Shown here piece by piece: positions 1 through 15,145 of a stretch of DNA of 64,000 nt. The notes beneath the pieces were generated by a model. That model was not told the DNA's origin and ran no database searches. It saw only the letters and a list, made by a program, of their open reading frames with translations. The stretch is taken from positions 116,972-180,971 of the forward strand of contig CAVPYV010000002.1 in assembly GCA_963710105.1 (NCBI GenBank), read 5' to 3'. Each line of letters starts with the position of its first letter. Within the stretch, counting starts at the first letter, position 1. The position numbers and the translations under genes were made by a program. Source of the stretch: an uncultured Chloroflexia bacterium (GTDB lineage Bacteria; Chloroflexota; Limnocylindria; Limnocylindrales; CSP1-4).

Positions 1-1182
1 AAGATCCGGGTGGCGATCGTCGGCGTCGGCAACTGCGCGAGCAGCCTCGTCCAGGGCCGCTACTACTACGAGAACGCCAAGGTCGAGGACAAGGTCCCGG
101 GCCTGATGCACGTCGAGCTCGGCGGCTACCACGTCCGCGACATCGAGTTCGTCGCCGCCTTCGACATCGACAAGAACAAGGTCGGCAAGGACCTGTCCGA
201 GGCGATCTACACGAAGCCGAACAACACCTACGTCTTCCACCAGGTCCCGAAGCTCGACGTCAAGGTCGAGCGCGGGATGGTCCACGACGGGCTCGGCAAA
301 TACCTCAGCCAGATCATCGAGAAGGCTCCGGGCGAGACCGCCGACGTGGTCGGGATCCTCAAGGAGCGCCAGGTCGACGTCGTCGTGTCCTACCTGCCGG
401 TCGGCAGCGAGGAGGCGACGAAGTGGTACGTCGAGCAGGCGCTGCGGGCCGGCGTCGGCTTCGTCAATGCGATCCCGGTGTTCATCGGCCGCGAGCCGTA
501 CTGGCAGCGCCGCTTCGCCGAGGAGGGCCTGCCGGTCATCGGCGACGACATCAAGAGCCAGGTCGGCGCGACGATCAGCCACCGCGTCCTGACCCGCCTC
601 TTCATGGATCGCGGCGTCCGGCTCGACCGGACGTACCAGCTGAACTTCGGCGGCAACACCGACTTCCTGAACATGCTCGAGCGGGAGCGGCTCGAGTCGA
701 AGAAGATCAGCAAGACGAACGCGGTCACCTCGATGCTCGACTACGAGATGGACCCCGACAACGTCCACGTCGGCCCGAGCGACCACGTCCCGTGGCTCGA
801 GGACCGCAAGTGGTGCTACATCCGGATGGAGGGCACGACGTTCGGTGACGTGCCGCTCAACGCGGAGCTGAAGCTCGAGGTCTGGGACAGCCCGAACAGC
901 GCCGGCGTCATCACCGACGCCGTCCGCTGCCTGAAGCTCGGCCTCGATCGCGGCCTCAAGGGCACGCTCGTCGCGCCGTCGAGCTACTTCATGAAGAGCC
1001 CGCCGATCCAGATCCACGACGACATCGCCTACAACCGGGTCGAGGCGTTCATCCGGGGCGAGGACAACGAGACGCTGGTCGGGACCGAGAACCTGACGAA
1101 GGCGCAGCTGAGGAAGCTGGCCTCGACCGCACCCGTCGCCGGCGCGGCCGGCAAGAAGGCGGCGGCCGCCGCCCCGAGGTGA
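1..1182 (+). CDS. ino1: myo-inositol-1-phosphate synthase (5'-truncated by window edge)
   Basis: Reads [19 protein letters not shown] from base 1; [31 protein letters not shown] and VWDSPNSAG motifs of the bacterial Ino1 family. Lys/Ala-rich C-terminal tail. Confidence 0.95.
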
Positions 1183-2309
1183 CCGTGGCCAAGGGCGCCG
1201 GCTCGGGCCTCGACGCACCCCACCGGCGCCGCGCCCAGGGCCCGCGGATCGTCGAGAAGACCGCCGTCACGGCCTACGCCGCGGCGGTCTGGCTGGTGGC
1301 CCACGTCCCGGCCGGCCTCGCCCGCTGGGTCATCGCGACCGGCAGCCAGGCGGGCTACCTGCTGTGGCCGACGAAGCGGCGCTGGTCGAACCAGAACTTC
1401 GGGAAGGTCGCCGGCCTTCCGCCGGACGACCGCCGCGTCCGCCGGCTGGCCCTGTCCGCGTACCGCGAGTACGCCCGCTACCTCGTCGAGGTCATGCGCC
1501 TCGAATCGCTCTCGCCGGACGAGGCGGTGGCGCGCGTGATCCAGCCGGACCTCGACCGGATCGAGGCGGAGTGGCGGTCGTCGCCGGGCGGCCTGATCTT
1601 CGCCCTCGGCCACGTCGGCAACAACGAGGCCGTGGCCGCCGGGGTCGCCGACCGGGGCTGGCCGATCAGCGTCGTGGCGGACGACTCGTCCTTCCCCGAG
1701 ATGTTCGAGCGGTTCCGCCGGCTGCGCGAGTCCTGGGGGATCCACGTCATCCCGTGGCGGAACCTGCGCGAGATCTACGCGGTCCTCAAGCGTGGCGAGA
1801 TGCTCGCGTTGCTCGTGGACTGGGGCTACCGCAGCGACGGCGTGCCGGTCCGCCTGTTCGGCTCGTGGACGACGCTGCCCGCCGGCCCGGCGTCGCTGGC
1901 GGCGAAGACCCGCTCGCGGATCCTGCCGGTCGCGATCCGGCGCGGGTCCGACGGCATGTTCCACGTGTCGTTCTCGCCGACGATCTCGGTCGCGTCCACC
2001 TCCGACGCCGACATCGCCCGGGCGACCCAGGAGCTCGCGGCGACGCTCGAGGCGACGATCGCCGCGGCGCCCGAGCAGTGGTACAGCTTCAAGCCGATCT
2101 GGCCGCCGACCGAGGAGGAGGCCGCCGGGCTCGAGGCGCGGGCGGCCCGGATGCTCGCCGGGGCCGCCGCCGAGCCGCCAGCGGTCGCCGCCGAGCCGGC
2201 GGAGCCCGTCGCCGGCGAGTCGCCCGACCTCCTCGTCCCGACGATCGCCGACGCCCCGGGGGCGGGCGACCCAGCCACGATCCCGGCGCCGGATCGCGCC
2301 CCGTCGTGA
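1179..2309 (+). CDS. lipid acyltransferase, LpxL/HtrB/PatA family (copy 1)
   Basis: GHVGNNE catalytic-His motif, ALLVDW, VRLFG and PEQW motifs; GTGA overlap with the ino1 stop. Confidence 0.85.
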
Positions 2310-3337
2310 CCGGGACGCCGGTCCAGCGGGCCCGCGTGGCGCTCCTCCGCGGTCTCTCGTGGATCGCCTGCCGGCTGCCCGAGGGCGTGGCGGTCGGGCT
2401 GGCCGAGGTCGTCGGCTGGCTCTGGTCGAAGCTCGCTCCGGAGCGCGCGGAGCAGGCTCGGCGGAACTTCAGCCGCGTGGCCGCCGCACTCGACGCGGAG
2501 GGTCGGGGGCCGGCGCGCGTGCGAGCCGCGGCGCACGACCGGCGGGCCCTGGATCGGCTCGTGACCGCGTCGTTCCAGCACGACGCCCGCTACTACCTCG
2601 AGGTCCTCCGCGTCCCGAGCCTGACGCCCGCCATCTTCGACCGACGCGTCGTCATCGAGACGCCGGACACCGTCGAGGACGCGTTCAGCGGCGGGGCCGT
2701 CATCTTCGTCGCGGCCCACTTCGGCCCGATCGAGCTGCCCGCGCTCTACCTCGCCCATCGCTCCGGCCGGACGTTCCACGCTCCGATGGAGGCGGTCGAC
2801 GACCCCGCGCTGCAGGGCTGGTTCGAGCGGACGCGAGGCTCGCTCGGCGTGACGATCGTCGGCCTCCGAGCCGCGCGTCGCGAGCTGCAGGCCGCCCTCC
2901 GGGCCGGCGGCGCCGTCGGGATCGTCGCGGACCGGGACATCAGCGGCGGCGGGATCGCGGTGCCGTTCTTCGGGTCTCCCGCCCCGATGCCCATCGGACC
3001 GGCCCTGCTCGCCCTCGAGACCGGGGCGCGGCTGTTCGCCGTCGGGGTGCGGCGCCTCCCGGACGGGCGGATCGCGGGCCGCCTGCTGGCGGTCCCGGTG
3101 GCGAGCGAGGGGTCTCGCCGGGAGCGGATCGCGGCCACGCTGGCGACGATGGCCGGCGCGTTCGAGGACCTGATCGGCGACGCGCCCGAGCAGTGGTCCG
3201 GCGCGTTTTTCCCGATCTGGCCGGACCTCGCGGGCGACGCCTCGGCGGCGGGCGACACCGCCACCGCGGGAGCCGCCTCGGCGGGCGACACCCCCGCCGC
3301 GGACCGAGCCGCGCCCGCGGACGGAGCCGGGCGATGA
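2306..3337 (+). CDS. lipid acyltransferase, LpxL/HtrB/PatA family (copy 2)
   Basis: 3' part of track ORF 1364..3337; GTG at 2306 overlaps the upstream TGA; AAHFGPIE, IVADRD, VPFFG and PEQW motifs. Confidence 0.82.
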   Translation: MTGTPVQRARVALLRGLSWIACRLPEGVAVGLAEVVGWLWSKLAPERAEQARRNFSRVAAALDAEGRGPARVRAAAHDRRALDRLVTASFQHDARYYLEVLRVPSLTPAIFDRRVVIETPDTVEDAFSGGAVIFVAAHFGPIELPALYLAHRSGRTFHAPMEAVDDPALQGWFERTRGSLGVTIVGLRAARRELQAALRAGGAVGIVADRDISGGGIAVPFFGSPAPMPIGPALLALETGARLFAVGVRRLPDGRIAGRLLAVPVASEGSRRERIAATLATMAGAFEDLIGDAPEQWSGAFFPIWPDLAGDASAAGDTATAGAASAGDTPAADRAAPADGAGR

Positions 3338-4179
3338 CCCAGCGCCTCGGCCGGGCCGACCTCCACGTCCACACCCTCGCGTCGGATGGGATCGACCCGA
3401 TCGCGACGATCCTCGACTTCATCGAGCACTCGACCGACCTGGACGTCGTCGCCATCGCCGACCACGAGCGGATCGACGCCGCCGTCGCCGCCCGGACGAT
3501 GGCACGCGAGCTCGGCCACCGCGCCGAGATCGTCGTCGGCGAGGAGGTCTCGACGCTCGGCGGCCACCTCCTCGCCCTGTTCCTCGAGGAGCGCGTCCGG
3601 CCGCTCCGCAGCCTGCGCACGACGATCGCCGAGGTCCACGAGCAGGGCGGGCTCGCGATCCCGGCCCATCCGCTCGTGCCCTACCCGCTGTGCGCCCAGG
3701 GCTGGGTGATCCGACGCCTGCTCGCCGACCGCGATCCGCGCGTCCGGCCGGACGCGATCGAGGCGTTCAACCCGACGATGTTCGGCCGGCCGATGCACGG
3801 CCGGGTCGTCCGCTTCGCCGAGGAGCTCGGCCTGGCCACGGTCGGCAACAGCGACGCCCACGAGGCGCGGACGATCGGGACCGGCTGGACGTCGTTCCCG
3901 GGCCGCACCGCGGAGGACGTCCGGGCAGCGATCCTCGAGGGCACGACCCATCACCACGGCTCGTTCCACGCTACCGGCGGCCAGGTCTCGACGTTCGGCC
4001 GGCAGCTCCGCAAGTACTCGCGCGACGCGCGGGCCGTGGTCGGCGGCAAGGTCCGCCGCGACGGGACGGGTCGCGACCTCGGCTATCCGGGCGGCCGGCA
4101 CCGGCCGCCGCGGTTCGAGGAGGAGTGGATGGCGCGCCGGACGAGCCACGTCGAGGCGGAGCAGAATCGCCGCGAATGA
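3334..4179 (+). CDS. PHP-family phosphoesterase
   Basis: 3' part of ORF 1792..4179; ATG 3334 overlaps the upstream TGA; DLHVHT-x2-SDG, ADH, GEEV, GHLL, AHP and GNSDAH metal ligands intact. Confidence 0.88.
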   Translation: MTQRLGRADLHVHTLASDGIDPIATILDFIEHSTDLDVVAIADHERIDAAVAARTMARELGHRAEIVVGEEVSTLGGHLLALFLEERVRPLRSLRTTIAEVHEQGGLAIPAHPLVPYPLCAQGWVIRRLLADRDPRVRPDAIEAFNPTMFGRPMHGRVVRFAEELGLATVGNSDAHEARTIGTGWTSFPGRTAEDVRAAILEGTTHHHGSFHATGGQVSTFGRQLRKYSRDARAVVGGKVRRDGTGRDLGYPGGRHRPPRFEEEWMARRTSHVEAEQNRRE

Positions 4180-5420
4180 AGATCGGCCTGGTCACGCCGT
4201 ACGTCTACCCGCTGCCGGGCGGGGTGACCCAGCACGTCCGCTATCTCTACGAGAACCTCCGCCTGCGCGGCCACGACGTCCGGATCATCTCCTCGTCGCA
4301 CGGCCTCCAGCGGGCGTCGGAGGGCGACATCATCCGGATCGGCAAGGGCTTCTCCCTGCCGGTCAACGGCTCGGTCGGGACGATCACGCTGTCGCCGCGC
4401 TTCGTCTCCCAGGTCCGCGGCATGCTCGAGCGCGAGCAGTTCGACCTTCTCCACTACCACGAGCCGTTCGTCCCCTTCCTCTCGCCGATCATCCTCCGCC
4501 TCTCGACCAGCGTGAACATCGCGACGTTCCACGCCTACGGCGGCTTCTCGCCCTCGTACGAGTTCGGGAGCAAGGTGATGAAGGGCGAGGCGGCCCGGCT
4601 CCACGGCCGGATCGCCGTGAGCGGAGCCGCGAAGCACTTCATCGACCGCTACTTCCCGGGCGACTACAAGGTCATCCCGAACGGCGTCGACGTCCACGCC
4701 TTCCAGCGCGCCGTCCCGCTCGCCCGCTGGCAGGACGGCACCCGCAACCTGTTCTTCGTCGGCCGGTTCGAGCCGCGGAAGGGCCTGATCGAGCTCCTCA
4801 AGGCGTACCGGATCCTGCGCAAGACCGGCTGCGACTGCCGCCTGCTGGTCGCCGGCACCGGGCCGCTCGGACGGGAGGCCCGGCGCTACGTCGCGACGCG
4901 CCGGCTGAAGGGCGTCGAGTTCCTCGGCCGGGTCAGCGACGAGGAGAAGGCCCAGCTCTTCCGGACCGCCGACGTCTACGTCTCGCCGGCGACCGGCGGC
5001 GAATCGTTCGGGATCGTGCTCCTCGAGGCGATGGCCGCCGGCACCGCGATCGTCGCCTCCGACATCCACGGCTACAAGGGCGTCCTGCGCCGCGGTCGAG
5101 AGGGGCTGCTCGTGCCGCCCCGCGAGCCGAAGGCGATTGCCGCGGCGATCGGCCGCCTCCTCCGTGACGACGAGCTTCGGGCGGCGATGGGCGAGGCCGG
5201 TCGGGAGCGGGCCGAGGAATTCAGCTGGGAGCGGGTCACGGCCAAGGTCGACGCCTACTACGGCTTCGTCGTCCGGCGCCTCGCCGCGCGTGGCGAGCTG
5301 CCGCTCGGGTTCCACGCGGCCGTTCCGCCGTCGCCGCGGTCCGGTCCGGCGCCGTCCCCCGAGGCGGCCGAGCCGGAGAGCGCAGTCGAGCCGGAGCAGC
5401 TCGCGGTCGACCTCGACTAG
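4176..5420 (+). CDS. pimA: GT4 glycosyltransferase, PimA-like alpha-mannosyltransferase
   Basis: MKIGLVTPY-x4-GGV, HEP, VIPNGVD, FVGRFEPRKG and GESFGIVLLEAMAAG motifs; context next to ino1 and PatA-like genes. The family call is firm; the pimA name rests on context. Confidence 0.75.
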   Translation: MKIGLVTPYVYPLPGGVTQHVRYLYENLRLRGHDVRIISSSHGLQRASEGDIIRIGKGFSLPVNGSVGTITLSPRFVSQVRGMLEREQFDLLHYHEPFVPFLSPIILRLSTSVNIATFHAYGGFSPSYEFGSKVMKGEAARLHGRIAVSGAAKHFIDRYFPGDYKVIPNGVDVHAFQRAVPLARWQDGTRNLFFVGRFEPRKGLIELLKAYRILRKTGCDCRLLVAGTGPLGREARRYVATRRLKGVEFLGRVSDEEKAQLFRTADVYVSPATGGESFGIVLLEAMAAGTAIVASDIHGYKGVLRRGREGLLVPPREPKAIAAAIGRLLRDDELRAAMGEAGRERAEEFSWERVTAKVDAYYGFVVRRLAARGELPLGFHAAVPPSPRSGPAPSPEAAEPESAVEPEQLAVDLD

Positions 5421-5505: not shown

Positions 5506-8500
5506 TCAGTCGCCCGCCGCCCCGCCGCCGGCTCCGCGCGGCCAGCCCGGTCCGAGCTCGGCGGCATCGCCGGCATCGGCCAGCCGCTCGGCGATCGCGA
5601 GCCGCCAGACCCAGGCCGAGTAGCCGACGACGAGCGCGAGGAACACGACCGCCGCGCCGAGCAGCAGCGGGACCGGCCCGAACAGCTCGGTCTTGACCGT
5701 GGCCGCGACGTTGTTCACCGGGAACTGGAAGGCGTACAGGTAGGTCGGCAGGACGCCCTGGTAGACGTTGGCGATCGCCGTCGGCAGGGGCAGCGCGCTG
5801 AAGTTCGGGTAGACGATGACGAACCAGCCGACGATCGCGACGATCGCGCCGACGACGAACCGGCGGGCATCGCGGGCCGTCGCGACGAACGCCGCGATCA
5901 GCACCGCCGGCAGCGCCAGGACCATCGCCACCGGCTCGACCGGGATGCGGTCGAGGGTGATCAGCGGGCTGTCGGTGATCGTCACCTGGACGAGCCAGCT
6001 CGCGACGATCGCTCCGAGCGCGGTCAGCCCGAGCCAGCCGAGCGTCACCGTCGACGGGCTGAGCTCGCGGCCGCCCACGACGATCGCCCGATCCCCCACC
6101 ACCCGCTCGTCGCCCAGCCGCCCGAACAGGCGAACGACCACGAGGACCGAGATCCCGACGATCAGCGCCATGGCCGCGGTCTGGTTGGTCAGCAGGAACT
6201 GGGGGATGACCGGCGGGCAGGCCTGCGAGCCGGGGTTGGCCTTCTCGACGTTGACGAAGCCGCACAGGGGTCGGTCGAACACCCAGAAGATCGCCGGGCC
6301 GAGGATGGCGACCGCGGCCGCGAGCCGGGCGAGCAGCCACGTCCGCCACGAGGCGCCGTGCCACAGCTCGCCGAGGAAGTAGGCCAGGGCGAGGATCAGG
6401 AACGGCAGGCTCGTGTAGTAGTGGTACTGGAACGCCGCCCGGTCGATCCGGGCCCAGGAGACCCACTGGAAGGCGTAGCCGATCGTGATCAGGGCGAGCG
6501 GCAGGCTCCGCCGGGCGAACGCCTGCCACGCCGCGAACCCGAGGGCCGGCAGGCCGAGCCACCAGACCACGATGTTGCCGGCGTCGTAGATCGCCGCGGT
6601 CGTGTTGCCGGCGAAGCCCTCCTGGTAGAACCAGACCGGCTTCAGGTCGAAGAGCCAGGCCCACCAAGGCGACGATGCGGCGTGCGGGGCGGTCAGGCCG
6701 TTGTGGTAGTTGTACATCGCCCCGGTGAGGTCGGTGAGGCTCTGGCCGGAGTGCCCCGCCGGCCAGCCGGCGAACAGGACGTGGTTGTCGAGGACGGCCC
6801 ACGGGATGTACGAGACCACGTAGATCGCGACGGGCAACACGAGCAGGCAGCCGACCATCCAGGCGACGGGCAGCCCGAGCTGGGCACCCGGCCGGAGCCA
6901 GGCCGCGGCCGGTGGCGGAGCCGGTGGCGGCAGGAGCGCGGCGGGCTCGTCCGGACCCGGGTCCGGCGCGAACGGCCCGAACCCGAGCCGCGCCGCCACC
7001 GCGAACCCGGCCCATGCGACGAGCCCGACGGCCGCCAGGGCGACCGCCAGCTCGAGCGGCGTGACCGTCGCCGACGACAGCGTGATCTCCCGGGACGCGC
7101 TGTTCGTGGCGATCGCCACGAGCGCCACGATCCCGCCGAGCGCCACCGGGCCGCCGATCGCGAAGCGGATCTCGTCGAGCGACCAGCGCAGCGGATGGAG
7201 GACGTTGGCGACCACGGCGGCAACGGTCAGGGCGACCATGATCGCGATGAACGGGAGGTTGCCGAACCCGGTCCCCTGCGGCACGTTGATCGCCAGGTAG
7301 CCGAGCACCGCGGTCATCACGACGAGGGCGGCGATCGCGAGGAGCCGGCCGAGGGCGCTCCGGACGAGGACGAGGAAGCCCATCCCGACGATCGCGTACA
7401 GGGCGACCCACTTCGAGGCGAGGGCCAGGCCGAGCAGGATCCCGATCAGCGGCATCGCGATCCAGAACGCCCCGCGATGGCGCCAGACGCCCGTCCACAG
7501 CGCCGCGAACAGGGTGTAGGCGGCGACGATCCCGAGCCCGACGTAGGCGTCGTTCATCCCGATTCGCGACTGGACGAAGAGCATCCCGTCGGCGACGCAC
7601 AGGATCGCGACGAACACGCCGACGATCCGCCGCCGGAACAGGATGCGGGCGAGGACGAACAGGAAGCCGGCCATCACGGCCCCGGCCAGGACACCGGGCA
7701 GGCGCCAGGCGAACTCGTGCTGGCCGACATCGACGCTGGCCGCCGCCCCGGCGCCATCGAAGACCAGGATCTGCTGGCGGTCGTCGGTCGGATAGGGCCG
7801 GGCGACGTCGACGGCCCAGGCGGAGGGCTCGATCGGCAGGCGGGCGTCGGCGAACACGGCCCGGGCGTGCGGCTCGATCACGTAGATCGTGGCCGAGCTG
7901 CCGTCGGGCGTCCGGCCGAGGACGTGGACCATCTCGCTCGCGTCGTCCCACGCGACCCGCGTCACCGGGCCAGGCATCGCCATCGACTCGAGGAGGGCGG
8001 GGCCGTCCTTCGCCTGGTCGCCGCCGACGGCGACGATCGCGATCCGGCCGCGCTGGTCGGTGGCCGGGTCCGGGTCGGTGCTGACGTAGAGCTTGTCGCC
8101 GTCGACGGTCGTGAGCGCGAGGCCGTGCGCCGCGCCGCCGACGTCGACGGTCGAGGTGAGATCGCCGCTGGCCGGGTTGATCAGCTCCAGCCCGCTCGCG
8201 TCGGCGACCGCGACCTGCGGCAGCGAGTCGATCGTCAGGCCGGCGAGGCGCCCGTCGTCGATCGCCGCCTGGACCGTCGTCCGGGCCGAGCTGCCGGGGA
8301 TGCCGGCGACGACGAGGCGGTCGGCGGTGCCGGAGAGACGCGCCTCGTACGTCGCGGTCGAGCCGCCGATCAGGGCGGCGATGGCCGAGGCGGCGGCCGT
8401 TGGATCCTCGACCGAGCCGGGCGCGCCGACGAGGGTCGGGGCGGTCCCGCCGGGGCCGATGTCGGCGACCGCCTCGAGCTGGACCGTCCCGCGGATCTCG

Positions 8501-11062
8501 GCCGTCGTCGGATCGAGGGTCCGGACCTGGCTGTCGGAGGTGACGACGAGGATGGCCGAGCCGTCGTCGGGCACGTAGAGGCGGTCGATCGCGCCGTCGA
8601 CCTGGCCGAACCGCTCCGGCTCGGCGATGTCGGCGGTCGAGCCGCCGGCCCGGAGCGAGTCGAGCGTGCTGAGATCGAACGTCCAGATCGTCCCGTCCGA
8701 CGAGCCGATGAACAGTCGGTCCTGGGTCGAGTCGACGGCGACTGCCGCGGCCCCCTCGATCGGCATCGTCGCCACCAGGGCACGCGTCGCGAGGTCGTAG
8801 GAGCGCAGCTCCGAGCCGGTGACGATGTCGACCCGGTCGCCCGCCCGGCCGTCGGGCAGGAACCCGTCGTCGAACCGGCGCTCGATCGTCGCGTCGAGGA
8901 CCGGCACGCCCAGGTTGCTCGTCGCGGTCACCCGGTCGTCGCCCCAGGCGACGAGTCCGCCGGCCATGGCGTACTTGGCGAGATGGGGGTGGGTCCACTC
9001 GTAGATGTCGTGGTCGATGCCGTAGCGCCAGTCCTGGAGGAACTCGGTCGCCGTCCGGGCGTGGTAGACCTCGTCGAAGTGCATCTGGTAGGGCTCGGAG
9101 AGGCGGAACATCCGGATCCCGAGAACGGCGACCACGAGGACGACGAGGAGCCACAGGTCGAGGCGGTCGAGGCGGCCCGGCGGCTCGTCGTGGAGCTCGT
9201 GCGATCGGTCCGCGCGGACCGGTCGCTGCTCAAGGCGGGCGCGGAACCACCCGATCGGGCCGGCTTCGGCGAAGGACGGCGGCTCCGACCACGTCGGGAA
9301 CGTGGCCGCGGCCGGGGCGGCGACGGCCGTTCCGCCGGCGGCCGACGTCGGGCCGGCCGGGTCGGCCGCGAACGCGGCGCCCGCCCCCGCGGTGGCGCCG
9401 GCCCGGCGGGTCCCGGCCGCCAGGCGCGTCGCGTCGGCCGCGGGGTGCGGCCACGGGGCGGCCGGGTCATCGGCCGCCTGGTCGTCGGACGCCTCGCCGG
9501 CGGCCTCGCCGAGCTCCCGCTCGAGGGCGGACCGGGCGGTCGGCCGGAGCTGGGCGAACGCCCAGAGCGCGGCGGCGAGGGCCGCCAGGGCGATGAGGGT
9601 CACCCCCGTCGAGCCGCGGATGCCCGGCCCGATCCCGAGCCAATCGGTGATCCCCGGGTTGTCGCCGTAGAGCGTCGTCAGGACGACGTACATGTTCAGG
9701 AACGTCGTCAGCGACAGCACCGCGTAGGCGATCCGCCAGCGGACGGAGATCGCGGCCAGGATGGCGCCGAGGGCGACGAGCGGGAAGAGGTAGCGCTCGT
9801 GGACCCGGGTGGGGAGGATGAAGAAGGCGATCGCGAGGATCGTCACGCCGGTCAGGATCACGAGCGGCGTCGGCCGCCGGGCGACCAGGACCGAGACGAT
9901 GACGAAGGCGGCGAGGAGCAGCGCGGCCCCGACGAACACCGCCGGGATCGGGCCGACCATCACGGCCTCGGGGCAGGAGGCGCCGCCGGGCGGAGGGGTC
10001 GTGATGACGGTGTCGCACGCCCACTGGCCGTTGGCGGCGACGCCGACCCCGTCGATCGAGGCGAGGGCCCACGGGTTGTAGGCGTTGACGCTGGCGTAAG
10101 GGTACCCGCCGGCGGTCTTGAAGACCTGCTCGATCAGCCCTGAATGGAAGACCTCGCCGTCGTGACCCGGCTCGATGACCGACAGGCCGAACGGAAAGCA
10201 CAGGACGACCGCCGCCAGGAACCCGGCCAGCCCGGTCGTGAGGATCCGGATGGGATGATCGGTCCGCCGCTCCCACCTCCGGAACCGGGCCCGGGCCCGG
10301 GTCAGCCCGGCGGCGGCCCCGGGCCGGCTCGGGGCGGCGTCGTCCGCGGCGGGCTCGGCCGCGGGCGCGGCGGGCTCCGCTGCACGCGCTGCGGGCTCCG
10401 CCGGTCGATCCGCCGGCCACAGCGCCCGCCGGATCGTCACGATCGCCACGATCGGGGCGAGGATCGCCGAGCTGCGGCTTGATCAGCGCCGCGACGACGG
10501 TCAGGATCGCGGCCCGCTCGGGGCGGTCGCGCCACAGCTCGCGGAGGCCGAGCAGGAGGAAGATCACCCCGAACGAGTCGACCTGGCCCCACAGGACCGA
10601 GTCGAACCAGGTGACCGGGTTGACGACGACGAGGGCCGCCCCGATCAGGCCCGCCCGGCGGCCGCCGCCGAGCTCGCGGACCATCGACCAGACCAGCCAG
10701 CCGAGAACGACGTCGGACAGGATCGGCGGGATCTTGATCAGGTCGCCGATGCTGCCCGTCGCGTTGCCGACCAGCCCGACCACGTACAGGACGTAGAGGT
10801 ACCCGGGCGTGTAGTCGTGGAAGAACGGGCGCTCGTAGAACCCGTGGAGGCCTTCGCTGCCGAGGTTGCCGGCCCACGCCTGGAACGACGCCAGGTCGAC
10901 CCTGAACCCCGACCCCGGGTTGAGCTGTGCGATGATGAACCGGAAGACGAGGCCGAGCGCGAGGACGGCGACGATCGCGCCGATGCCATCCCGCGTCCAG
11001 GTGGTCCGTGTCGGCGTGTCCGCGTCCCGGCTCGGTCCGCCCGACACGCGGCCGGACGTCAC
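5506..11062 (-). CDS. ~1,850-aa polytopic GT-C fusion (N-terminal GT-C module + protein O-mannosyltransferase-like module), interrupted by a 1-nt frameshift near 10465-10468
   Basis: ORF 9467..11149 carries the N-terminus (DLASFQAW, DYTPGY, NP-x4-DS-x2-WGQVD, LIKPQ). ORF 5506..10449 continues the same domain (YASVNAYNPW, TRVHERY) and then PMT motifs (FDEVYH, HPHLAK, FAWR, SRIGMND, SKW, H-x3-SPWW-x-W, KPVWFY). Removing one base restores LIKPQL(G/A)ILAPIVAIV. GTG 11062 is preceded by GGGGAG. Confidence 0.8.
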
Positions 11063-11091
11063 GGGTTGGATCTCCCCGAACGAGCGTTGAG

Positions 11092-12654
11092 GTGGACCGC
11101 AGGGTAGCACAGGGCCGACCGCCACTTGCCCGGGGCTTCCCGACGCCATCGCCGTTCACCGCGATCGCGATCGGCTCCGCCCTGGTCGCGGTCGCCCTGG
11201 TCGTCTACACGCTCAGTCATCCCTACCGCTTCTACAACCATTTCGAGTGGCAGGCGATGGCGTTCCTGGAGGGCCAGGCGGCGATCCGCTACCCGGTCCA
11301 TGCAACGGCGACGTCGCCGTTCGCGAACGACTTCTTCCAGGACGTCCTGCCGGTCCCGACCACGGACGGGATCCCGCGCGGCCTGGTTCCGTTCCCGCCC
11401 CTGCCGGCCGTCCTGCTGATGCCGTTCGTCGCCCTGTGGGGCCTCGCCACCGACGGCCAGCTCGTGTTCGCGATCCTCGGCGCGCTCGACGTCGGGATCG
11501 CCTGGTGGATGCTCGGGAAGCTGCCGATCCGGACGTGGGTCCGGATCGCGACGACCGTCTTCCTCGGGTTCGGGACGGTGTTCTGGTATGCCGCCCAGAT
11601 CGGGACGACCTGGTACCAGGCCCACGTCCTCGCGGTCGGCCTCGCCCTCGCCGCGATCGGGGTTGCGCTGGGCGGTGATCGCGATGCGGCCCGGAGCGAG
11701 GACGACCTCGACGACGCGCTCGACGGCCCGGACGAGCTCCGGGACCCCCCGGCGGGGCTCGCGGCCGCGACACCGCCGGGCGCGGTCGGCGGTGTCGCGA
11801 TCCCGACGCCATGGCCGCGGATCCGTCTTGCCGCCCTCGTCCCCGATCGCCGTCAGTTCGTCGCCGGCTTCCTGTTCGGGCTGGCCTGCACGTCGCGGCT
11901 CACCGTGGCGTTCGCCGCGCCGTTCTTCGTCCTCGTCGGCTCGGGCGGCTCGTGGCAACGGCGCGGCTGGTCGGCGGCGCTCGGCGCGGGGATCCCGATC
12001 GGCCTCCTCGTCGTCTACAACCTCGTGTCGACCGGCCACGTCTTCCACCCCGGCTACGAGTACCTGTACAAGCTCGAGGCGGGGTTCTACATCCCGTTGA
12101 ACTACCACCTGGACTGGCAGATCGAGGACCTTCGCTACCTGCCCCAGAACTTCGCGATCATGTTCCTGGAGACCCCGGTCTGGCATCCGACCGTCGTCCC
12201 GTCGGCGCTCGGCCTCGGCGGGCCGCTCTGCACCGACCCGGCCGTCCGCGGGATCTTCGATCTCCGATGCCCGCTCGTCCTGCCGCGCGACACCGGGATG
12301 AGCATCCTGCTCACAAGCCCGGCCTACCTCCTCGCCCTGCCGGCGATCCGCTGGGGCTTCGGGCGGAGTCGTCTCGTGACCGGGGCCGGCCTCGCGGTCC
12401 TGATCGTGGCGTTCGTGAACCTCATGCATTTCAGCCAGGGCTGGGTCCAGTTCGGCTACCGGTTCAGCCTCGACTTCGCGCCGTGGGCGATCCTCCTCGT
12501 CGCGGTCGGGCTGGAGCGCCTCGCGGCGCGGACGGGGCGGCCCGGCGGACGGGCGGTCGCGTGGGCCCTCGTCGTCGTCGCCCTGCTCCTCGTCGTCGCG
12601 TCGGTGCTCGTCAACCTGTGGGGCGTGGTCTGGGGCGACGCGCTCGGATGGTGA
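11092..12654 (+). CDS. uncharacterised GT-C-superfamily-like membrane protein (start uncertain)
   Basis: Multiple TM helices with YNHFEWQAMAFL, PFPPLPAVLL, YNL, TSPAYL and QFGYRFSLDF motifs typical of orphan GT-C proteins; the only plausible in-frame start before TM1 is GTG 11092. Confidence 0.6.
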   Translation: MDRRVAQGRPPLARGFPTPSPFTAIAIGSALVAVALVVYTLSHPYRFYNHFEWQAMAFLEGQAAIRYPVHATATSPFANDFFQDVLPVPTTDGIPRGLVPFPPLPAVLLMPFVALWGLATDGQLVFAILGALDVGIAWWMLGKLPIRTWVRIATTVFLGFGTVFWYAAQIGTTWYQAHVLAVGLALAAIGVALGGDRDAARSEDDLDDALDGPDELRDPPAGLAAATPPGAVGGVAIPTPWPRIRLAALVPDRRQFVAGFLFGLACTSRLTVAFAAPFFVLVGSGGSWQRRGWSAALGAGIPIGLLVVYNLVSTGHVFHPGYEYLYKLEAGFYIPLNYHLDWQIEDLRYLPQNFAIMFLETPVWHPTVVPSALGLGGPLCTDPAVRGIFDLRCPLVLPRDTGMSILLTSPAYLLALPAIRWGFGRSRLVTGAGLAVLIVAFVNLMHFSQGWVQFGYRFSLDFAPWAILLVAVGLERLAARTGRPGGRAVAWALVVVALLLVVASVLVNLWGVVWGDALGW

Positions 12655-14369
12655 CGAGCCGCCGGCCGTCGCGCACGGTCTCCCTGGGCCCGTGGGTCGC
12701 CGCGCTGGGCGTCGGCGTCGTCGCGCTCGGGCTGTGCCTCTGGCGGGTCATGCCCGGCCTCGGGTTCTGGGACACGGCCGAGTTCCAGACGGTGCTGCCC
12801 GTCATGGGGACCGCCCACCCGACCGGCTACCCGACCTACGTCCTGATCGGCTGGCTCGCGTCGGTCGTCCTGGCCCCGCTCGGCGAGGCGGCGTTCCGGG
12901 TCAACGTGCTCTCGGCGATCCTCGTCGGCATCGGGGCGGCCGTGACCGTCGACCTGGCCAGACGCCTCAGCGGATCCCTCTTGATCGCGATCGTGACCGG
13001 CCTCGGCGTCGCGACCGCGCCGATCGTCTGGGCGATCGGGACCCACGCCGACCCGCACGCGCTCCACTTCGCCTTCGTCGCGATCATCCTCTGGCTCCTC
13101 GTCCGCTGGGAGCAGGGCCGTCGCCGCGACCCGTTCCACGACTCGCTCCGGCGCGACGACCCGCTCGACGAGCCAGTCGACGAGCCGGCCCCGGCAGACG
13201 CCTCGGGCTCGGGCTCGGCCGAGGCGAGCGCCGCGGGACGGCGGGCCGACCGGCTCCTCCTCGCCGCCGCCGCGGTCGTCGGCCTGTCGGTCGGGAACCA
13301 CTCGCTGACCCTCCTGCTCGGGCCGCCGATCCTCTTCTTCGTCGTCGCGGTCGAGCCCGGGATCCTCCGGCGGCGGCGCTTCGTCCTCGCCAACATCGCG
13401 GCCTTCGCCATCCCGACGATCCTCGTCCGGTTCGAGATGGTCCTCCGCGGCGGCTGGTTCCGGGCCCCGTTCGTCTACGCCGACCCCGGCACCTGGACCG
13501 GGTTCTGGTACGTCACCCTCGGCGCCCAGTTCCACGGCTGGGTGACCGATCCCTTCGGCGACCTCCCGCAGCGCGTCGCCGACCTCCTGGCGATCTTCGC
13601 CGCCCAGTTCGGCCCACTCGCCGCGGTCGTGGCCGTCGCCGCGGTCGTGACGATCGTCCGCCAGCCGCGCTACGCCCTCCTCAGCGGGATGACGCTGGTG
13701 CTGACCTGCGCCTTCAACTCGGTCTACCCCGACGGCGCGATCGACCGCTACTACATCGGCCCCGTCCTCATCGCCTGGACGTGGCTGGCGATCCTCGGCG
13801 CGACGGTCGTCGACCTGTTCGTTGATCGGGACGGCGGGTGGGACGACCGCATCGCGGGGATGGGCCTGCTCCTGCCCGCCGCGCTCCGACCCGTCGCGGT
13901 CACCGTGGTGGCGGGCCTCCTCCTCGCCCCGACGCTGATCGCCCTGCCCGCCCGGGCCGGCTCGCCGGACATCGACCGGTCCGGCGATCGGGCCGCCCAG
14001 GTCTGGACCGACGATGTCCTCGCGGCGCTCGAGCCCGACGCGGTCGTCGTGTCGTGGTGGAGCTACTCGACCCCGCTCTGGTATGCCACGATCGTCGATG
14101 CACGGCGGACCGACATCTGCATCATCGATGACCGCAACCGCCTCGACTACGACCTCGGAGAGCTCGACCAGGTGATCGATCGCTACGTCGCCACGCGGCC
14201 CGTGTACCTGATCCGGAACGGGTCGAGCGAGCTCGGCGCGCTCGCCGGCCGCTACGTGATCGCCCCGCTCGGGAGCCCGACCGCCGGCAACGTGCTGCGG
14301 GTCACCGCGAGCCCCGACCACGGCGGGCCCGTCGCCCCGCCGCCCGGCTCGAGCGAGCCCTGCCGGTGA
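12648..14369 (+). CDS. DUF2723 (TMEM260-like) glycosyltransferase
   Basis: 3' part of ORF 11811..14369; WDTAEFQ, AHPTGYPTY, AFRVNVLSA and GNHSLT motifs; ATG 12648 overlaps the upstream stop. Confidence 0.8.
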   Translation: MVTSRRPSRTVSLGPWVAALGVGVVALGLCLWRVMPGLGFWDTAEFQTVLPVMGTAHPTGYPTYVLIGWLASVVLAPLGEAAFRVNVLSAILVGIGAAVTVDLARRLSGSLLIAIVTGLGVATAPIVWAIGTHADPHALHFAFVAIILWLLVRWEQGRRRDPFHDSLRRDDPLDEPVDEPAPADASGSGSAEASAAGRRADRLLLAAAAVVGLSVGNHSLTLLLGPPILFFVVAVEPGILRRRRFVLANIAAFAIPTILVRFEMVLRGGWFRAPFVYADPGTWTGFWYVTLGAQFHGWVTDPFGDLPQRVADLLAIFAAQFGPLAAVVAVAAVVTIVRQPRYALLSGMTLVLTCAFNSVYPDGAIDRYYIGPVLIAWTWLAILGATVVDLFVDRDGGWDDRIAGMGLLLPAALRPVAVTVVAGLLLAPTLIALPARAGSPDIDRSGDRAAQVWTDDVLAALEPDAVVVSWWSYSTPLWYATIVDARRTDICIIDDRNRLDYDLGELDQVIDRYVATRPVYLIRNGSSELGALAGRYVIAPLGSPTAGNVLRVTASPDHGGPVAPPPGSSEPCR

Positions 14370-15145
14370 CCGAGCGCCTCGCCGCCCTGTCCTACTTCTT
14401 CCCCGCCCACAACGAGGAGGCCAACCTCGAGGCCCTCGTGGCCGAGGCGCTGGCGACCCTGCCCGGGCTCGCCGAGACCTTCGAGATCGTCATCGTCGAC
14501 GACGGCTCGCGCGACGCCACCGGCCGGATCGCCGACGAGCTCGCGGCCGCCAATCCGGGCGTCGTCCGGGCCGTCCACCACCCGACGAACCGGGGCTACG
14601 GCGCGGCCCTCCTGTCCGGCTTCCGGGCGGCCCGCCACGACCACGTCGCCTTCACCGACGGCGACCGCCAGTTCCGGGTCGCCGACGTCGCCCGGCTGAT
14701 CGACCGGATGGCGGCCGCGGACCGGCCGGACGTCGTCGTCGGCTTCCGGATCAAGCGCGCCGATCCGCTCGTCCGGACGTTCTACGCCCGCGCCTACCGG
14801 CTCGCCAACCGGATCTTCTTCGGCCTCCGGGTTCGCGACGTCGACTGTGCCTGCAAGCTGTTCCGACGGGAGGCCCTCGCCGGCGTGGCGGTCGAGTCGG
14901 GCGGGGCCTTCTTCTCGGCGGAGCTGCTGATCAAGCTGCGCGCGGCCGGCCGCTCGGTGGCCGAGGTCGGCGTGCCGCATCATCCGCGGACCGCCGGGTC
15001 GCCGACCGGCGCCAAGCCGTCGGTCGTGCTGCGCGCCGTCCGTGACTTCTGGCGGCTGCGGATCGCGATGTGGCGGAACCGCCGCGCGGCGCTCGCCCAC
15101 GGCGAGCCCGTCCTGGCCGCCGGCCCGGATCCGGCCCGCTCCTAG
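14366..15145 (+). CDS. GT2 polyprenol-phosphate glycosyltransferase (Ppm1/DPM1-like)
   Basis: FFPAHNEE, IVDDGSRDAT, NRGYGAA, FTDGDRQF and RDVDCACKLFRR motifs. Confidence 0.85.
   Translation: MTERLAALSYFFPAHNEEANLEALVAEALATLPGLAETFEIVIVDDGSRDATGRIADELAAANPGVVRAVHHPTNRGYGAALLSGFRAARHDHVAFTDGDRQFRVADVARLIDRMAAADRPDVVVGFRIKRADPLVRTFYARAYRLANRIFFGLRVRDVDCACKLFRREALAGVAVESGGAFFSAELLIKLRAAGRSVAEVGVPHHPRTAGSPTGAKPSVVLRAVRDFWRLRIAMWRNRRAALAHGEPVLAAGPDPARS

Follow-up and report, generated by a model that had tools for sequence, protein, structure and literature searches.

A class-wide fusion of GT87-like, beta-propeller and GT39-type modules in the uncultured Limnocylindria, a candidate single-chain protein O-glycosyltransferase

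In actinobacteria, protein O-mannosylation is started by Pmt, a glycosyltransferase of family GT39, and the chains are elongated by the GT87 enzyme PimE (PMC12757957), which both makes AcPIM5 and elongates O-mannose (PMC12757957; bioRxiv 2026.09.29.755281). A preprint of July 2026 describes a mycobacterial Pmt complex, supported by a pull-down, in which Pmt (Rv1002c/ML0192c) has three partners: Rv0051/ML2687c, a GT87-like glycosyltransferase of the GT-C fold said to be without catalytic residues; Rv3212/ML0810c, a periplasmic eight-bladed beta-propeller above the active site; and Rv1209/ML1065, a DivIVA-family protein of small size (bioRxiv 10.64898/2026.07.15.738315). The same preprint proposes dimerisation as a general property of Pmts and reports a Paenibacillus GT39 protein translationally fused to a GT87 enzyme, UniProt V9WAU2 (10.64898/2026.07.15.738315). 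The subject here is a membrane protein of ~1,850 residues encoded on the minus strand of a 64,000-nucleotide stretch (the window; contig CAVPYV010000002.1 of assembly GCA_963710105.1, positions 116,972 to 180,971, G+C ~73%) from an uncultured member of the class Limnocylindria, phylum Chloroflexota. It is confirmed to be a real fusion, conserved across the class, of an N-terminal GT-C module and a module related to protein O-mannosyltransferases (PMTs), the latter with a beta-propeller built into its first outer loop.

The gene occupies 11062..5506 and comprises 1,851 codons once base 10465 is skipped, this being the single break found from the open reading frames (ORFs) and the three-frame translation. 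Frame A is open from 11149, has its GTG start at 11062 and ends in ...VVAALIKPQLG, with the last codon at 10468-10466. Frame B takes over with ILAPIV... at 10464 and is closed by the stop codon at 5508-5506; in the three-frame translation of 10300-10620 it reads ILAPIVAIVTIRRALW after the junction. The extra base that shifts the frame (10465..10465, minus strand) lies within CTCGGCGATC and could equally be placed anywhere in 10465-10468. At the DNA level, 12/12 of the nearest relatives have a 1-nt gap at 10465, and the proteins of relatives continue uninterrupted across the junction as KPQL[A/G]IL[A/I]P. Full-length homologues start with MTSGRVSGGPSRD..., matching the GTG at 11062. The gene is not a chance ORF, because its G+C content at third codon positions (GC3) is 0.96 and it has more than 1,300 homologues. 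Residue numbers below refer to the 1,851-residue read-through protein, the coordinates of its parts were verified by back-translation, and all of these parts lie on the minus strand.

The more than 1,300 relatives were recovered in a search of 5.8 billion proteins. Among the top 120, most are 1,770-1,920 amino acids (aa) long and share 51-79% identity, with a few shorter partials, and all those with a taxonomic label come from metagenome-assembled genomes, mostly of Candidatus Limnocylindrales or Chloroflexota. At least 493 of the GTDB species genomes scanned carry a relative. The first-pass annotation had proposed that a single polypeptide joins two different GT-C modules, and the search for full-length homologues bears this out: they are not consistently two genes, and in 64 of the 80 best loci the protein is encoded by a single uninterrupted ORF (1,717-1,855 aa, plus one of 2,220 aa). 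Distribution was followed in 200 evenly drawn Chloroflexota genomes. The N-terminal module (N-module) was found in all genomes of the same class (21/21), in frames mostly of ~1,440-2,320 aa that continue into the PMT side with its insert; shorter frames in class genomes represent a gene split or cut by a contig end. The giant fused gene was found in 0/180 of the other-class genomes, which hold weak stand-alone relatives, namely N-module-like frames mostly of 390-770 aa and PMT-like frames mostly of 550-750 aa (a few to ~860). The latter agree with the ~500-550 aa that the first-pass annotation had given for bacterial PMTs, and they match the membrane core only, never the propeller insert.

An exception, in another family, is genome G140, where a strong match to the N-module (E 5e-100) lies in a frame of 805 aa close to a contig end. 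A second giant gene, or an N-module paralogue standing alone, occurs in some members of the class; in the sister family f3, some genomes encode the giant fusion twice, at ~1,565-1,600 aa, as in G058 (C7:275562-279779 and C4:876063-880580). Longer variants of 2,052-2,323 aa occur in G151, G169 and G178 (genus g5), where insertions split the N-module profile match into several pieces. An arrangement as two separate genes was considered and rejected, because a 1-nt indel accounts for the split in the window. The short homologue P0111 (1,347 aa) was likewise rejected as a separate gene: the N-module lies directly upstream, in five frame pieces, and the interruption is a frameshift artefact of a long-read contig.

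The PMT side opens with an Arg-rich conserved segment (residues 596-632, 9166..9276, 55% identity) ahead of the first transmembrane helix (TM1). TM1 and the start of loop 1 (8947..9165) form the most conserved stretch of the protein, at 81% identity, and include the invariant catalytic Asp-Glu (DE) motif within FDEVYH at 662-667 (D34 and E35 of alignment A3, 65 sequences). After the propeller follows the GT39-type membrane core (6262..7716), with SRIGMND (1165-1171), SKW (1216-1218), extra helices, SSPWW (SPWW at 1464-1467), KPVWFY (1474-1479) and FQYHYY. In hidden Markov model scans of the kind suggested by the first-pass annotation, Pfam PMT (PF02366) scored 31.3 bits against a cut-off of 22.7, rising to 37.9 bits in a six-frame genome search, and PMT_4TMC (PF16192) scored 46.5 bits against a cut-off of 32.4 and was present in all listed homologues. 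The six-frame search also identified this as the sole GT39-type gene of its own genome. An AlphaFold2 (AF2) model of window residues 630-1826 (predicted local distance difference test, pLDDT, 83; predicted template modelling score, pTM, 0.84) begins with TM1 and two short outer helices, continues with an all-beta domain of ~400 residues that has ~30 strands and a small helical sub-insert, and closes with a long helical bundle. The extra helices that had been read from the sequence between SKW and the C-terminal domain appear in this model as several helices between the Pfam PMT and PMT_4TMC regions. About five more form, together with a short disordered tail, the C-terminal extension (residues 1601-1851, 5509..6261, stop 5506-5508), which is mostly unmatched in f3, where most profile matches stop before it.

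The all-beta domain corresponds to a beta-propeller of ~410 aa with 7 or 8 blades and a small helical sub-insert (7717..8946), lying in extracytoplasmic loop 1. It begins ~40 residues past the DE motif and ends ~10 residues before TM2, a placement between the two that therefore puts it on the outer face, adjoining the active site. Its pLDDT is mostly 85-95, and a Foldseek search with the PMT-side model returned a list of top 50 matches that were almost all WD40-type propellers, with Gbeta chains at TMt ~0.65-0.70 and a best value of 0.75; as propellers dominate the top 50 listed, PMT structures were not ranked there. At the sequence level the insert has weak Pfam and PDB propeller matches, and a PDB profile search with the whole protein gave weak PMT and WD40 matches alone. 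The first-pass annotation had not included this insert of ~410 aa in loop 1 as a propeller, and thus as a third component of the complex.

The N-terminal GT-C module, of GT87/PimE/ALG6-like type, covers residues 1-199 in frame A (10466..11062) and residues 200-505 in frame B (9547..10464), the latter including a large outer loop. About 65 of its residues are invariant across 64 species, among them D56-x3-F60-x2-W63 where the first outer helix begins, D83-Y-T-P-G in HDYTPGY (82-88), W158-G-Q-V-D162, K195-P-Q (195-197) and H421-E-R-Y (421-424) in PTRVHERY (418-424). With these, all the motifs listed in the first-pass annotation for either module are present in the read-through protein after repair of the frameshift. 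In PimE, which has 12 transmembrane helices and cytoplasmic N- and C-termini, the residues shown to be essential or important are D58 at the tip of juxtamembrane helix JM1, along with Y62 four positions further, Q163, K195 and H321/H322 (PMC12041525). D56, F60, Q160, K195 and H421 of the N-module mirror PimE D58, Y62, Q163, K195 and H321/322 in order and spacing. The module shares with PimE (GT87, PDB 9dm5) its GT-C fold and, going by order and spacing, an Asp where the first juxtamembrane helix starts with an aromatic residue four on, a Lys near position 195 and a His in a later outer loop; the sugar donor of PimE is a polyprenyl-phosphate-mannose. Unlike PimE, the module carries ~100 aa of additional outer loop, in which Cys residues are conserved, and it is joined to a PMT. 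Given that PimE-like catalytic positions appear to be kept, the N-module is probably an active enzyme family.

The fold of the N-module was assessed from an AF2 model of the module of the closest intact relative, built from 64 aligned sequences (pLDDT 88.9, pTM 0.88). It models as GT-C, in agreement with the first-pass annotation, and the top Foldseek match was the GPI mannosyltransferase I Gpi14 (9wno, GT50; E 8.7e-6), with PIG-U and ALG6 (6snh, GT57; TMq 0.60) ranking above PimE (9dm5, E 3.3e-4), and with ALG3 also among the matches. Assignment to GT87 by profile is marginal: against a cut-off of 25, Pfam GT87 (PF09594) scored 27.4 bits for the window piece, 29.7 bits in the six-frame genome search and 24.8 bits at locus L002. 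Among 64 relatives, weak Pfam matches were to GT87 in 51/64 at E<0.1 and to ALG6_ALG8 in 29/64, and fragments of the module are named 'glycosyltransferase 87 family protein' or DUF2029 at NCBI.

A search for N-module relatives that stand alone gave for the most part fragments of this family, together with two genuine stand-alone paralogues, G169:C7:108326-109558 (L097) and G160:C2:275188-276438 (L098). These are 529-559 aa long and ~33% identical, they keep all the catalytic-type motifs, and there is no PMT module beside either. Elsewhere in the own genome of the window (C2:242874-245410, outside the window) are three adjacent Pfam GT87 matches of 34, 69 and 30 bits, a separate GT87-type cluster.

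The two modules are joined by an Ala/Pro-rich linker (residues 506-595, 9277..9546), with 31 Ala and 11 Pro in 90 residues and a predicted cytoplasmic location. The first-pass annotation had recognised this linker, and its placement at 9190-9500 was roughly right. The linker of relatives shows 22% identity to that of the window and is 55-108 aa long, and Arg-rich sequence is found in the N-tail, at the linker start and in the conserved segment before TM1. By analogy with PimE, an even number of helices would place the variable linker in the cytoplasm and both catalytic loops outside.

On balance, a reading of the protein as a single-chain protein O-glycosyltransferase holoenzyme of the cytoplasmic membrane, most likely an O-mannosyltransferase, is somewhat favoured. 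The architecture as one ORF, its conservation, the folds and the conserved motifs are shown; the sugar, the acceptors, what the propeller does and whether both sites are active are inferred as follows. The N-terminal GT87/PimE/ALG6-like module, with probably ~12 transmembrane helices and both ends cytoplasmic, would be tethered by the variable cytoplasmic Ala/Pro linker to the GT39/PMT-type module, and both would draw on a polyprenyl-phosphate-hexose that the GT2 enzyme encoded nearby produces. The PMT module would attach the first sugar to Ser/Thr of exported proteins, and the built-in outer-face propeller directly after its active-site loop probably selects or gates those acceptor proteins. 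The N-module would most likely add the next sugar, or alternatively would mannosylate a phosphatidylinositol (PI) glycolipid of the adjacent operon. Initiation and extension of O-mannosylation by one chain, as suggested in the first-pass annotation, is plausible by analogy, because mycobacterial Pmt primes, PimE elongates and the N-module keeps PimE-like positions. More tentatively, the protein may be a natural single-chain 'holo-PMT' with two live sites, in which a propeller-gated GT39 primes and the GT87-like module extends the O-glycan and/or mannosylates a PI-glycolipid.

The neighbouring genes were counted over 81 loci. Divergent from the fusion gene, on the plus strand, are a multi-helix membrane protein of 548 aa (11008-12654), a TMEM260-like GT-C identified by family match (PF11028; about 12651-14369) and a GT2 gene resembling polyprenyl-phosphate-sugar synthases, also by family match (14132-15145). 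These divergent neighbours (11008..15145) are each present in 59-64/81 loci. The 548-aa protein, kept in 64/81 loci, belongs to no Pfam or NCBIfam family; a 19-bit GT87 hint was all that the six-frame search gave, and it was rejected as a paralogue of the N-module as there was no profile similarity by hhalign. The locus thus holds three GT-C modules with fold or family support (N-module, PMT module and TMEM260-like) and a likely donor synthase. On the other side, convergent with the fusion gene (10..5420, plus strand), are ino1, two PatA-like acyltransferases, a PHP hydrolase and a GT4 gene, each in 54-71/81 loci. The best NCBIfam match of the two acyltransferases is the PI mannoside (PIM) acyltransferase, at 162 and 133 bits, below the cut-off. 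By sequence, these convergent genes look like a PI-mannoside-type operon conserved across Limnocylindria, and at locus L001 a CDP-alcohol phosphatidyltransferase adjoins ino1.

Several observations weigh against the proposed holoenzyme. The Pfam PMT model also matches in E. coli and B. subtilis, so it is not fully specific, and the NCBIfam Pmt equivalog NF058602 gave 29-43 bits against a cut-off of 800, so far below that the PMT module is therefore a distant GT39-type relative and not an actinobacterial Pmt orthologue. GT87 membership of the N-module is put in further doubt by the read-through module of 540 aa, which gave no GT87 match when scanned whole, and searches of PDB chains with the N-module, by profile and by single sequence at E up to 10, gave no sequence match. 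Its residue equivalences with PimE are suggested by order and spacing, not by superposition. The GT2 neighbour scores about alike with several polyprenyl-phosphate-sugar synthases and so does not fix the sugar; all relatives are metagenome-assembled genomes, with members known from sequence alone; and the conserved linkage to the PI/PIM-like operon fits a glycolipid acceptor equally well. Within the same architecture, the N-module could instead be a non-catalytic partner, like yeast Pmt2 on the model of Pmt1-Pmt2 or like Rv0051/ML2687c, that holds the acceptor polypeptide or stabilises the PMT module and leaves one active site. That ML2687c is GT87-like yet without catalytic residues, and that Pmt dimerisation has been proposed as general (10.64898/2026.07.15.738315), are in keeping with such a scaffold, as are the marginal GT87 scores of the N-module. 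However, the invariant residues across the 64 species include the first outer helix Asp, KPQ and HERY at PimE-like positions, and the same motifs are kept in the stand-alone paralogues with no PMT partner at the locus, which fits an enzyme better, so that a scaffolding role is considered unlikely. A further alternative takes PimE and MptA/B of mycobacteria as its model, with the protein, or at least its N-module, extending the PI-mannoside-like glycolipid of the adjacent operon toward a lipomannan-like polymer. The frequency with which ino1 and its companions adjoin the gene speaks for this, and the nearest folds, Gpi14 and PimE, both mannosylate PI-based glycolipids, PimE itself serving PIM synthesis as well as O-mannose elongation. 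Yet the PMT module has the DE motif and PMT_4TMC region that are hallmarks of protein O-mannosyltransferases, the propeller resembles the proposed protein-gating subunit of mycobacteria, and adjacency across convergent transcription units is weak evidence. In the literature searched there was no report of PIM or lipomannan for the class, and this lipid-directed reading appears quite improbable. Literature searches likewise found no paper on PI lipids in the class or on the Limnocylindria fusion.

If the 1-nt insertion at 10465 is real, the copy in this genome is a true pseudogene, its N-module is destroyed and the gene would yield at most a PMT-side product of 1,647 aa from the in-frame GTG at 10449, the start of the minus-strand ORF 10449..5506 (1,647 codons). 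The break does stand in the deposited sequence, a start codon for the truncated product is available, and rpoB and rpoC, examined as error probes, are intact, so the indel rate of the assembly is not high, errors are not everywhere, and the break could be real. A product from 10449 would, however, start inside a transmembrane helix of the N-module, and the broken gene, the only one of GT39 type in its genome, belongs to a family that occurs in all class genomes sampled. Both flanks of the break keep a GC3 of 0.96 and full-strength profile matches, and there is no other defect. The genome has an estimated completeness of 82% despite consisting of 3 contigs, and a GC3-based survey counted 49 frameshift-like junctions over all its contigs, a density of 14 per Mb where the loci of relatives have 2-7 per Mb; this moderate excess suggests residual indel errors, which may also affect other gene calls in the assembly. 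The lone extra base relative to homologues, the lack of any further defect, the low completeness and the junction excess thus make an assembly error quite likely, and a true pseudogene a possible but clearly less probable explanation.

If the holoenzyme reading is true, one chain would combine three out of four component types of the newly proposed mycobacterial O-mannosylation complex, and a fusion in a distant phylum would be independent support for that complex. With its stoichiometry fixed in a single polypeptide, the protein would then also lend itself to cryo-EM and to assays of what the propeller and the second GT-C contribute. As the catalytic residues of the N-module seem to be retained, this module could show whether O-mannose priming and extension are physically coupled. 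Limnocylindria, abundant uncultured bacteria of soil and freshwater, would on this reading have actinobacteria-like envelope glycosylation together with a PI-glycolipid gene cluster. Should both sites be live, the fusion would be independent Rosetta-stone evidence that GT39, a GT87-like module and a propeller are an old bacterial envelope glycosylation unit, and it would point to an active extender as the ancestor of the inactive Rv0051-type partner in mycobacteria.

Compared by type of part, the Limnocylindria protein and the mycobacterial Pmt complex share a GT39 with the DE motif, a GT87-like GT-C and an extracytoplasmic propeller near the active site. Unlike the mycobacterial complex, the Limnocylindria protein has the three parts in one chain with the propeller inside PMT loop 1, and its PMT core has extra helices and a C-terminal extension that distinguish it from mycobacterial Pmt. 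Its GT87-like part appears to keep PimE-like catalytic positions, which ML2687c is said to lack, and the covalent linker may replace the bridging DivIVA-family subunit (ML1065). Yeast Pmt1-Pmt2 and Pmt4 (GT39; PDB 6P25, 9e61) share with it the DE motif of loop 1, the PMT and PMT_4TMC regions, the pairing of GT-C units and a soluble domain capping the active site. In yeast, however, a MIR beta-trefoil in loop 5 forms the cap and the partner is another GT39 with a chain of its own, whereas the Limnocylindria protein has a propeller in loop 1 and, as partner, a GT87-like module of the same chain. Paenibacillus V9WAU2, in a different phylum, likewise combines GT39 and GT87-family modules in one chain. 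The first-pass annotation had regarded the enzyme as undescribed; this is only partly right, given the preprint's complex of Pmt, GT87-like protein and propeller and its Paenibacillus GT39-GT87 fusions. The three-in-one protein is a variant of the just-described complex, not a wholly new architecture.

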